Shown here: positions 30,743 to 33,259 of the stretch, piece by piece
How the letters are laid out: the number at the start of each line of letters is the position of its first letter
How positions within the stretch are numbered: position 1 is the first letter of the stretch
Source: Myxococcales bacterium
Lineage (GTDB): Bacteria; Myxococcota_A; Polyangia; Haliangiales; Haliangiaceae
NCBI GenBank assembly: GCA_947483555.1
Contig: CANKMW010000015.1
Span: 26,425-90,424, forward strand
Length of the DNA stretch: 64,000 nt
Reading direction: 5' to 3'
Program-made: the position numbers and the translations under genes
The notes under the pieces: model-generated
Database searches by the model: none
Told to the model about the DNA's origin: nothing
What the model saw: the letters and a program-made list of their open reading frames with translations, nothing else

Positions 30743-33259
30743 TCACGCTCCCGGCGTCAGCCTTGGCACTTCTCCGTTACCGCCGGTGACCCGGTCCTTC
30801 ACCTTCTCCATCAGGCCGGCCAGCGGCGTGCCGGCGAACACCTTGTCGATGACGTCGGTGAGGGTCTTGCCGCCGACGAATGCCTGGACGCTCATCGCCT
30901 CGGCGACCTTGGCCAGCACCTCGCGCGACGACAGCGCCAGCAGCGCCTCGCTGAACCCGCCCTGGGCGGCGTCGAAGCGCTTGACCACGGCGTCGACCTC
31001 GGCGGCGACCGCCTCGAGCGCCAGCACCTGACGGCCGCGGGCGGCGGTCAGCCCGGCGACCTCCATCTCGCCGGAGCGCCGCAGGTTGGCCTTGTGATCG
31101 ACGTCGATGGCGGCGTTCTTCGCGGTCGCCGACTGCTCGCGGGCCTTGGCCTCGTCGAGCTCGCCCTTCACGGTCGCCAGCGCGACGCGAAAGCGGGCCG
31201 CGATGGCCTCGATCTCCAGCTCGGCGAGCTTGGTGCGGGTCTCGGCCTGCGCGATCGCCGTGTCGCGGGCGATGCTCTCCTGCCGGCGCGCGACGTCGAG
31301 GCCGCGCTGGGCGCTGATCAGCTTGATGTTCGACTGCACGGCGTCGTGCTGGGCGTCGCCGAGCAGGTTGGAGATCGCCTCGTCGTCGATGTCGACCTCG
31401 AGGATCTCGACGTCGGTGACGTGCATGCCGTTCTCGGCGAAGCGCATGCCGCCGCGGGCGGCGCCGTCGCCGGGTTCGCCGCTGCGGCCCAGCATGACGT
31501 CGCGGATGATGTCGATCGAGCCGCCGTAGAACTGCTCGATCGACACCTTCTTGATCGCGCCCTTGAGCACGCTGCGGACGTGGTCGCACAGGAACTTGAC
31601 GTAGTTCTCGACCTCGAACCAGCGGTTGGGTTCGCCGGTGAAGTTGACGCGCATCGAATACTCGAGCGTGACCTGGACGTGGTCGCTGGTCTCGACCACG
31701 CAGATGTCGCCGACCTTGTTGTTGAGCACCCGCAGGAACACGGTGTGGATCAAGCGCTCGGTCGACTTCGGCTTGCTGGTCGACAGCTCGATCACCTCGA
31801 GCGCCTCGTCGTAGCCGAGCAGCAGATTCACCGGGCCCTGCTCGACGCGGCGGTGGCCCTGCTTGTCGATGACCATGACCGCGTAGCCGACCCACACGTT
31901 GATCGCCGGCACGCCCTGGAAGCGGGTGTCGAGCACCACCGTGCGCGGCTGGGTGAACTGGTTGCCGCGCTCCAGCACGTCGCCGCCGACCTGGTTCGAC
32001 GCCGGGGCGGCGGCGCCCATCGCCACCTGCAGCGCCGCCGGCGCCTTCTTCTGCTGTTTCTGGATCTCGCTCTCCGAGACCACGCCGGCGCGGCCGACCG
32101 GCGCCGCGCTCTCGAGCTGCCGCAGCGAGCGGTTGTAGGCCAGCACCGCGTCGTTGCCCGGGTACCAGGTGTTGCACTCGCGGTCGCTGAGCACGCGGCG
32201 CACGATCACGTCGTCGACCGGGTTGGGCAGCAGCATCGCCGGGCCCCGCGCCATGCGGATCTCGCCGCTCTTGCGGTTCATGACGTAGCGCGCCTCGCCG
32301 GCCGGGACCGCGACCGCGAAGTGTTTGTCCTTGCCGTCGTAGCGGACGACCGAGTGCTCCTCGCGCGGGAAGTAGATCGCGGTCTCCTTGCCGGTGATGA
32401 ACAGCTCGTCACCCTCGCGGTACGCGCGCCCGGCCTCGGTGTAGGGCGCGATGACCTTGACGTGCAGGCCCTGGATCTCCTGCAGCTCGATGGCCTTGTA
32501 CTTGCGCAGGCCATCCTTGGCGATGAACTGCTCGGTCGGCTCGGGGAACACGACCTGGGGGCCGCGCTCGTAGCGCTTCTTGCCGTTCTGGTCGACGAGG
32601 ATGCAGTACTCGAGCCGCTCGAGCGTGAGCGCGTCGCGCACGTACGAGCCGGCCTCGTCGGTGACCACGCCCACGCCGGTCGGCGGGATGTAGAACGAGA
32701 CGTCGGTGCCCTTGATGATGAACAGCTTGCCGACCGTGAGATCGCGGGGCGCGCCGCTCATCGGCTGCGCGGCCTCGGGACCGTCGCCGGCCGGCTTGAT
32801 GACCGCCTGGCCCCAGTGCTTGCGGGCCTCGTCCTCGTTGTAGACTCGGACCACGAGATACTGGTTGGAGCGCAGGTGATGGCCGGGGACCAGCTTCACC
32901 ATCTGGCCCGGCCACAGCGGGAACGACGTCGGTCCCGTGATGTTGATCTTGCGGCCGACCTCTAGATCCGGCGACGGATACACGCCGCCGGCGGCGGGGT
33001 GATCGTTGCGCGCCGACGGATTCTTGAGGGTGACGTAGTAGCCCTCGGGCGCGATGGCGATCTGCTGCACCGCCTGTTCGAGCGTGCAGGCCTCGAACCG
33101 CTTGTTTTCGGGATTGAAGATGACCGGCCGCTCCTGCGCGGTCGGGTTGATCACCGTCGGGCCGGTGTACGTCTTGATGATGCCCTTGGTGACATCCTGC
33201 ATATAGGCGTACTCGCTCGGCGCGAGCACGAGGTCACGCTTCTGGTTCCGCTCTTCCAT
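30743..33259 (-). CDS. mvp: major vault protein (MVP) homolog
   Basis: 838 aa. The N-terminal MVP repeats start at LAPSEYAYMQDVTKGIIKTYTGPTVINPTAQERPVIF, which aligns with the eukaryotic [36 protein letters not shown]. Repeated modules of the ~55-aa MVP repeat follow (PxxYxxV.D...G...GP....L.P.E). The shoulder domain GMRFAENGMHVTDVEILEVDIDDEAI matches eukaryotic [32 protein letters not shown]. A long A/E/R-rich cap-helix coiled coil and a C-terminal tail follow. The overall architecture is co-linear with eukaryotic MVP. Confidence 0.9.
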   Translation of the reverse strand: MEERNQKRDLVLAPSEYAYMQDVTKGIIKTYTGPTVINPTAQERPVIFNPENKRFEACTLEQAVQQIAIAPEGYYVTLKNPSARNDHPAAGGVYPSPDLEVGRKINITGPTSFPLWPGQMVKLVPGHHLRSNQYLVVRVYNEDEARKHWGQAVIKPAGDGPEAAQPMSGAPRDLTVGKLFIIKGTDVSFYIPPTGVGVVTDEAGSYVRDALTLERLEYCILVDQNGKKRYERGPQVVFPEPTEQFIAKDGLRKYKAIELQEIQGLHVKVIAPYTEAGRAYREGDELFITGKETAIYFPREEHSVVRYDGKDKHFAVAVPAGEARYVMNRKSGEIRMARGPAMLLPNPVDDVIVRRVLSDRECNTWYPGNDAVLAYNRSLRQLESAAPVGRAGVVSESEIQKQQKKAPAALQVAMGAAAPASNQVGGDVLERGNQFTQPRTVVLDTRFQGVPAINVWVGYAVMVIDKQGHRRVEQGPVNLLLGYDEALEVIELSTSKPKSTERLIHTVFLRVLNNKVGDICVVETSDHVQVTLEYSMRVNFTGEPNRWFEVENYVKFLCDHVRSVLKGAIKKVSIEQFYGGSIDIIRDVMLGRSGEPGDGAARGGMRFAENGMHVTDVEILEVDIDDEAISNLLGDAQHDAVQSNIKLISAQRGLDVARRQESIARDTAIAQAETRTKLAELEIEAIAARFRVALATVKGELDEAKAREQSATAKNAAIDVDHKANLRRSGEMEVAGLTAARGRQVLALEAVAAEVDAVVKRFDAAQGGFSEALLALSSREVLAKVAEAMSVQAFVGGKTLTDVIDKVFAGTPLAGLMEKVKDRVTGGNGEVPRLTPGA

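Follow-up and report, generated by a model that had tools for sequence, protein, structure and literature searches.

Here, a gene in a 64-kb window of Myxococcales bacterium contig CANKMW010000015.1 (assembly GCA_947483555.1; the window is the whole stretch of 64,000 nucleotides that was analysed) is identified with high confidence as encoding a bacterial homologue of the eukaryotic major vault protein (MVP). The open reading frame (ORF) occupies positions 30743..33259 of the minus strand, and its 838-residue product is colinear with eukaryotic MVP from the N-terminal repeats via an SPFH-like shoulder to the cap helix, on the combined evidence of sequence profiles, structure prediction and fold search. 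An original prediction, made by a model from the letters of the sequence, had proposed both the homology and the colinearity; the former is upheld by Pfam and PDB searches, an AlphaFold2 (AF2) model and Foldseek, the latter by profile alignments and the predicted fold. The ORF of 838 amino acids (aa) that it named exists, although the minus strand had not been stated. The peptides it quoted are present in the protein (LAPSEYAYMQD...PVIF at residues 12-48 and GMRFAENGMHVTDVEILEVDIDDEAI at residues 604-629), and HMMER alignments confirm that the eukaryotic strings set against them are rat and human MVP sequence.

Sequence evidence and predicted structure

The shoulder gives the clearest signal. 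Pfam MVP_shoulder (PF11978) matches residues 513-625 over model positions 2-117 of 118 with 89.1 bits (E=2.8e-25, cutoff 25), and Vault_3 matches residues 466-509, the last repeat, with 31.7 bits (E=1.7e-7, cutoff 28.8); each of these two profiles is also matched in 55/55 sampled family members. Among the repeat profiles tested (PF01505, PF17794, PF17795 and PF17796), Vault_3 alone exceeds its cutoff in the window protein, all repeats but the last having diverged beyond the reach of the Pfam Vault repeat models, and the Vault and Vault_2 profiles match 3/55 and 1/55 relatives, respectively. A profile search had been suggested as a check on the original prediction, and MVP_shoulder and one Vault repeat profile are thus above their curated cutoffs. 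A search of NCBIfam returned no family for the window protein.

In a phmmer search of the PDB the significant matches were MVPs only, with human MVP at E=1.9e-14 (query 454-793 aligned with MVP 461-829), and the alignment with rabbit MVP (9z4w) reaches query residue 809 at MVP residue 847. A family profile built from 103 diverse members (A2) matched rat MVP at E=9.6e-44, with additional weak colinear stretches that pair profile positions 225-355 with rat MVP 278-409 (i-Evalue 0.0046) and profile positions 14-52 with MVP 10-47; 3gf5, a crystal chain of R1-R7 only, was matched at E=2.3e-6. The profile covers MVP repeats R1 and R6-R9 in colinear order, and the PDB matches run from R1 to the end of the cap helix and into part of the cap ring.

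Structure prediction, also suggested as a check, gave a confident monomer model whose best full-length PDB matches are MVP. A first AF2 run on 66 close homologues (>=66% identity) had a mean predicted local distance difference test score (pLDDT) of 50.6 and an unusable N-terminal half. A second run used alignment A2, in which representatives at 38-54% identity were added, and reached a mean pLDDT of 82.7 and a predicted template modelling score (pTM) of 0.61, with pLDDT ~95 over residues 6-400 and 450-640. When this model was compared with the PDB by Foldseek, ranks 1-12 were full-length MVP chains (E 6e-33 to 1e-25, 809-957 alignment columns) and ranks 13-16 were murine MVP R1-R7 crystals (3gf5, 3gnf and 3gng; E=7e-15 to 2e-14, template modelling (TM) score for the target 0.57-0.59). 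The next matches, to HflK/C, flotillin, prohibitin, stomatin, erlin and QmcA, had E ~1e-6 and covered the shoulder and helix only.

The ORF comprises 838 codons and a stop and opens with ATG (ORF list and translation), and the plus-strand reading of 30743-33259 is full of stops. The GC content of the window is 68-77% and long spurious ORFs overlap throughout; the minus-strand frame at 30743..33259 is taken to be the real and complete coding sequence because its codon-position GC signature (GC1 0.68, GC2 0.43, GC3 0.95) fits such high-GC genomes. The first residues, M-[DE]-E-R-N-x-K-R-D-L-V-L-A-P-S-E-Y-A-Y-M-Q-D, are kept among homologues, which supports the ATG start, and sequence inspection places a Shine-Dalgarno-like GGGGGA 6 nucleotides 5' of it (33266..33271, minus strand). 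A protein identical to the MVP homologue is present in NCBI/ENA (P0001). Full-length conservation in 79 of the 80 genome loci retrieved, the monophyly of the clade to which the protein belongs (group A, below) and the conservation of its repeats mark this as a real gene kept by purifying selection. A scan of the sequence 5' of the gene gave neither a sigma-70-like nor a sigma-54-like promoter consensus, a terminator scan at the gene gave nothing informative, and no second MVP copy was found within the window.

Domain architecture

Six MVP-type beta repeat units occupy residues 8-357 (32189..33238; this and all following domain coordinates are on the minus strand), modelled at pLDDT ~95 and matched by Foldseek to 3gf5 (E=6.9e-15, TM (target) 0.59). 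Their approximate limits, drawn from the secondary structure of the model, are U1 8-60, U2 61-129, U3 130-203, U4 204-254, U5 255-309 and U6 310-357, with a variable loop inside U3 at residues 157-178. They are followed by an insert at residues 358-450 (31910..32188), in which AF2 predicts helices at 359-365, 370-385 and 396-405 and then a linker with pLDDT <50 at residues 411-435; conservation of the insert is 0.42, versus 0.64-0.72 in the flanking repeats. The last repeat, U7 (residues 451-512; 31724..31909), is equivalent to eukaryotic R9: it contains the Vault_3 match, aligns with human MVP 461-519 and carries a conserved S-x-G-K-P-K motif (S-x-G-[KR]-P-K). Probabilities from hhalign between units (91% for U1-U6, 59% for U3-U5, 50% for U2-U3 and 45% for U4-U7) are a weak sign of internal repetition of two alternating kinds. 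The tandem repeats of ~55 aa that had been proposed are present as a predicted N-terminal repeat stack, with ~7 units of 48-74 aa rather than nine of 55 aa.

The proposed SPFH-like shoulder is confirmed at residues 513-626 (31382..31723) by the MVP_shoulder match and by AF2 (pLDDT >90) and Foldseek. So is the long A/E/R-rich cap helix, which AF2 models at residues 627-764 (30968..31381) as a single uninterrupted alpha-helix of 138 residues, ~200 Å long, that contains 31 A, 13 E and 13 R and aligns with human MVP ~647-800. The C-terminal region (residues 765-838; 30746..30967) sits at the position of the eukaryotic cap ring and consists of short helices and a variable tail, modelled with low confidence; its conserved part, 765-825, includes the motifs RFxAAQGGFSEALLAL and FAGTPL, and columns invariant in group A include R761, F762, A764-Q766, G768, F769, E771, L773, L774, G810, T811, P812 and L813. 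Conservation across the family is highest in repeats U3b-U6 (0.65-0.72) and lowest in the cap helix (0.36), and residues 9-44 of the N-terminal repeat are nearly invariant in group A. No hydrophobic or membrane segment, lipid anchor or signal peptide was found in the 838-aa protein, the maximum 19-residue Kyte-Doolittle mean being 1.22. The protein is thus taken to be cytoplasmic and soluble because it lacks both a hydrophobic segment and a signal peptide.

The domain order is that of eukaryotic MVP (rat and human; PDB 4V60, 4HL8, 7PKZ and 9BW5), over 838 aa versus 861-893 aa, with ~16-18% identity in structural alignments and a cap helix of 138 residues compared with ~155. The SPFH/band-7 cage formers (HflK/C, flotillin, prohibitin, stomatin, erlin and QmcA) have an SPFH-fold domain and a long helix in common with the window protein, but they are membrane-anchored and lack its ~510-residue N-terminal repeat stack. 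Asgard archaeal MVPs have a cap helix, a shoulder and reduced repeats, and their assembly was modelled without experimental data (PMC12962969); they were identified through structure and contain 5 repeats, whereas the window protein has ~7 and is detectable by sequence.

Family size, earlier reports and inheritance

MVP genes had been described in the original prediction as rare in bacteria, a claim that the searches contradict. A word-indexed search matched over 6136 clusters at 90% identity; the 120 best of these are 65-100% identical to the window protein, ~800-860 aa long and from metagenome-assembled genomes (MAGs) of Myxococcales, Kofleriaceae and Nannocystaceae. An exhaustive search of 50%-identity representatives returned 1231 clusters, 623 of them with E<=1e-30, and the best 150 of the 1231 are full-length and colinear at 38-58% identity. 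Many close relatives are already annotated 'major vault protein' by the Joint Genome Institute (JGI).

Bacterial homologues have also been in print since 2013. Daly et al. 2013 (PMC3762200) reported, and modelled the docking of, putative homologues from Corallococcus, Plesiocystis (two copies), Microscilla, Saprospira, Flexibacter and Herpetosiphon, and Sokolskyi 2019 (bioRxiv 10.1101/872010) analysed homologues from Myxococcales, Cytophagales and Oscillatoriales (cyanobacterial). A 2023 preprint described two phage MVPs from human-gut Caudoviricetes (bioRxiv 10.1101/2023.11.10.566534), and the paper on the Asgard homologues (Nat Microbiol 2026, PMC12962969) speaks of MVPs in 'only a few Bacteria'. 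The earlier set includes Plesiocystis pacifica A6FXM1/A6FXE2, Corallococcus coralloides H8MNI3, Enhygromyxa salina A0A0C2D5V5, Saprospira and Microscilla (PMC3762200; bioRxiv 10.1101/872010). The myxobacterial ones come from Myxococcota, like the window organism, and have a band-7-like shoulder and ~25% identity to eukaryotic MVP, with two copies in some genomes; the window organism is a different, uncultured and Kofleriaceae-like one, and family membership with the earlier UniProt entries is inferred from Pfam architecture and taxonomy.

The window gene is a further member of a known, experimentally uncharacterised family, and its novelty had been overstated. On its own it adds little, being one among thousands of database entries; its product is a clean, full-length and soluble representative for expression and electron microscopy. 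Vault function has been an open question for 40 years, and a tractable prokaryotic homologue would help with it.

Inheritance was followed in 80 loci from species-representative genomes, retrieved with search patterns biased to Myxococcota, and in a neighbour-joining (NJ) tree that was midpoint-rooted without an outgroup, bootstrapped 100 times and is indicative only. Group A, which includes the window protein, comprises sequences 58-90% identical to it, is monophyletic in 100/100 NJ bootstraps and spans several Myxococcota families. Within this lineage of Kofleriaceae/Haliangiales-like Myxococcota the gene appears to be vertically inherited. A second paralogue, group B, shares 51-55% identity with the window protein, and both paralogues co-occur in 16 MAGs, among them those of the window organism's five closest relatives. 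In the tree the two Myxococcota groups are interspersed with viral sequences, and A+B monophyly was recovered in 0/100 bootstraps; given the missing outgroup and the Myxococcota bias of the genome scan, transfer could have run in either direction. One group A-like homologue with 63% identity lies in a record labelled as a gammaproteobacterium (LFCU01000241.1, 'Candidatus Achromatium palustre'), and could reflect either horizontal transfer or a binning contaminant.

Phage-encoded relatives

Relatives are widespread on viral contigs. By tblastn, 'uncultured phage' records LR756501, LR756503 and LR756500 (462-735 kb) matched at 39-44% identity and up to 98% coverage, and a scan of IMG/VR found at least 282 viral contigs with a relative; the 80 retrieved from these, at 38-52% identity, are nearly all full-length, and 74 of them cover at least 800 query residues. 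The retrieved viral contigs are often 100-480 kb with a GC content of 24-67%. Genes for a T4-type topoisomerase II subunit and an endolysin adjoin one viral MVP homologue, and the contexts of distant family representatives are also viral-looking, while no conserved neighbour of the MVP homologue was found across 80 viral loci and PHROGs v4 holds no family for it. These jumbo-phage and other phage MVPs are full-length and colinear and resemble the window protein (38-52% identity) more closely than does any eukaryotic MVP; they sit among phage genes on viral contigs, whereas the window gene is chromosomal and its clade distinct (100/100 bootstraps).

On one phage-like contig (P0269, JGI sample 3300075153, 198.6 kb) a 658-aa Band_7 protein is encoded directly upstream of the MVP homologue, and the two may form a two-component SPFH/MVP pair in a jumbo phage. 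Genes for ThyX, NUDIX and NAMPT/NAPRTase proteins lie near the MVP homologue on the same contig.

An rtcB-linked paralogue in other genomes

In 10 MAGs of one Myxococcota clade (L055, L056, L058, L059, L061-L064, L066 and L067) the group B MVP gene lies 5-100 bp downstream of rtcB, with rtcR divergent, and in an eleventh (L057) rtcR directly adjoins the MVP gene. In L058, for example, rtcR is at 7053-8627 (minus strand), rtcB at 8699-9955 (plus) and the MVP paralogue at 9983-12451 (plus). RtcB is identified by Pfam RtcB at 432 bits and RtcR by its RtcR and Sigma54_activat domains. Most of the short rtcR-rtcB spacers that were read contain a sigma-54-like TGG-N9-CTGCA, clear in L059, L061, L063, L066 and L067, and most also contain GGATAA/TATC repeats. 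The arrangement suggests that the group B MVP is co-expressed with rtcB and would be RNA-damage-inducible under RtcR/sigma-54 control. Rfam gave no match on 7 rtcB-MVP loci, and in the literature searched no paper linking RtcB and a bacterial MVP was found. Neither this rtcB-linked paralogue nor the wide presence of MVP in jumbo phages was found described in that literature, and both lie outside the window.

Proposed assembly, role and alternative explanations

The data are best explained by a cytoplasmic MVP orthologue whose chain is built like that of MVP, an explanation to which little doubt attaches. What follows on oligomerisation, cage closure, stoichiometry, cargo and physiological role is offered as a model. 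Helices bundle subunits both in the vault and in SPFH cages, and shoulder and helix regions are part of solved oligomers. Assembly is proposed because monomeric stability is not expected of an isolated 138-residue helix and the homologous regions lie in solved oligomers. By analogy, many copies would associate side by side via the shoulder and the cap helix to give a closed dome, with the repeat stack as the dome wall, and a pair of such domes, joined at the conserved N-terminal repeat, might form a hollow particle resembling the vault. The mammalian vault is made of 39-mer half shells (D39); the bacterial particle would be smaller or differently proportioned, owing to its fewer repeats. The formation of some large homo- or hetero-oligomeric cage is considered somewhat probable on these grounds, and that of a closed two-half vault less so. 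Where a host has both paralogues, these could co-assemble in the manner of MVP-alpha/MVP-beta, HflK/C or prohibitin 1/2.

As to role, the evidence points weakly to the sequestering or protection of RNA or ribonucleoprotein during stress or infection, a hint taken from the wiring of the sister paralogue to the RtcR/RtcB RNA-repair regulon and from the carriage of relatives by jumbo phages. The wider proposal, that bacterial-type MVPs build prokaryotic vault-like cages which act in RNA or ribonucleoprotein protection or sequestration under RNA damage or phage attack, is a speculative one with a small chance of being right. On that view, if correct, the vault would represent an ancient module for RNA stress and conflict that is common to bacteria, their giant viruses and eukaryotes.

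Several observations weigh against a vault-like particle or an RNA-stress role. The animal and amoebozoan shell has nine repeats, R1-R9, compared with ~7 in the window protein, which in turn has a ~90-residue helical or disordered insert before the last repeat that is absent from eukaryotic MVP; because of both features, a particle might have a very different geometry, or assembly might end with a single dome. The strongest peak of hydrophobic periodicity in the cap helix is at 2.25 residues, and the power near 3.6-3.8 was reached by 26/500 shuffles and is not clearly significant. Human MVP has a basic NAD+/ADP-ribose pocket at the R9/shoulder junction, formed by R507, P508, H509, K573 and others (PMC12280208); R507/P508/H509 correspond to S499/T500/E501 in the window protein, in a pairwise HMMER alignment only. 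Counterparts of the eukaryotic vault components vPARP, TEP1 and vault RNA were not found near the gene in the window: PARP and TROVE/TEP1-like domains were absent from the 20 neighbouring proteins scanned, and Rfam detected no vault RNA, Y RNA or other RNA in the 64 kb. In the literature searched no experimentally characterised particle of any bacterial or prokaryotic MVP was found, in agreement with the original prediction, whose statement concerns the whole family rather than this gene. Finally, the rtcB link belongs to the paralogue in other genomes and not to the window gene, 5' of which a sigma-54 motif scan gave chance-level matches, none of them within 33260-33400.

The shortened repeat stack is also one of the grounds on which the protein could instead form a single dome or ring, possibly docked on a membrane or another structure, with no closed two-half vault; 'vault-like nanocompartment' would then be an overstatement. 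The shoulder and helix resemble the cages of HflK/C, flotillin, prohibitin, stomatin and erlin, all of them single membrane domes, and even eukaryotic vaults are reported to be membrane-associated in situ in a 2026 paper (PMC13100048). However, the window protein has no transmembrane or lipid-anchor segment, and it does have the waist-forming N-terminal repeat, nearly invariant in group A (9-44) and weakly aligned with rat MVP 10-47, so that a single dome is seen as possible and on the unlikely side. A more radical departure would be a generic SPFH/band-7 or TolA-like coiled-coil protein with MVP likeness confined to the shoulder and a low-complexity helix, and the original prediction had itself named a generic band-7 protein without the repeat barrel as what would overturn it. 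Such a reading could draw on a weak Band_7 match (E=0.0047) and on the TolA-like similarity of the A/E/K-rich helix that earlier authors remarked on (PMC3762200; bioRxiv 10.1101/872010). Yet Band_7 stays below threshold, at 17.4 bits against a cutoff of 23.6, while MVP_shoulder scores 64 bits above its own; residues 1-510 have neither an SPFH domain nor a transmembrane segment, fold as an MVP-type repeat stack and match the R1-R7 crystal structure at E=7e-15; and the family profile aligns with MVP R1 and R6-R9 in colinear order. The generic band-7 reading was rejected on the profile alignment, the AF2 model and Foldseek, and its probability is regarded as negligible.

The abundance of viral relatives raises another prospect, that the gene came from a phage in recent times, as a moron or as the remnant of a prophage, and has its function in phage biology rather than in the host. 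The 38-52% identity of relatives on at least 282 IMG/VR contigs and the 462-735 kb huge-phage records would fit this, as would the phage topoisomerase II and endolysin genes beside one viral homologue, the interleaving of the Myxococcota clades with viral sequences in the NJ tree and an indel beside the window gene, where 27773-30648 is absent from the closest relatives. Against it, the GC3 of 0.95 matches the host genome, the flanks are ordinary cellular genes (HEAT/cyclophilin, hydrolase, cytochrome bd-like, AhpC and LysR), the window gene has no PHROG match, and the monophyly of group A (100/100) across several Myxococcota families implies long vertical residence. A recent phage origin is considered very improbable.

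Gene neighbourhood

Across the 80 genome loci no gene is conserved beside the group A MVP gene outside L001-L005, which are near-identical genomes. Directly downstream of MVP, the window carries a three-gene block (27773-30648) that encodes an AAA_14/DUF4143 ATPase (plus strand), a small adenylate/guanylate cyclase-domain protein (minus) and a MORN_2-repeat protein (minus). The block has no counterpart in L001-L005, the otherwise syntenic closest relatives, and looks like a local, strain-specific insertion. A gene at 34881-37280 (minus strand) for an 800-aa protein with HEAT repeats and a C-terminal cyclophilin-type peptidyl-prolyl isomerase domain stands beside MVP only in the closest relatives L001-L004. 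The wider window consists of ordinary chromosomal DNA, whose other genes include those for a DEAD-box helicase, an M50 peptidase, a hydrolase, a cytochrome bd-like protein, AhpC and a LysR regulator.

In a sub-clade of group A (L012, L013, L019, L028, L032, L035, L036, L039, L071 and L077) a gene for a ~385-aa Ser/Thr kinase lies 3' of MVP. Its distance is +25 to +160 bp in six loci and larger in the rest, and GST-like and metallophosphoesterase genes often come after it; this arrangement is not present in the window.

VIT and VWA are the domain pair of vault PARP4, and two VIT+VWA proteins are encoded in the window. One, at 23583-26024 (minus strand), lies 4.7 kb from MVP and carries a P_proprotein domain as well as a signal peptide; the other, at ~46980-49537 (plus strand), 13.7 kb from the MVP gene, has an apparent start at an MPMPMP motif and no signal peptide. 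As vPARP-like partners they were rejected, since a signal peptide is present in one and, outside the closest relatives, neither recurs in the vicinity of MVP, and their proximity to the MVP gene is probably coincidental. Positions 46684-46782, just 5' of the second VIT+VWA gene, are taken up by a perfect tandem repeat of a hexanucleotide, (CCGAAA) x 16.5; read in frame, it gives the listed ORF 46664-49537 a spurious '(RN)n' extension.

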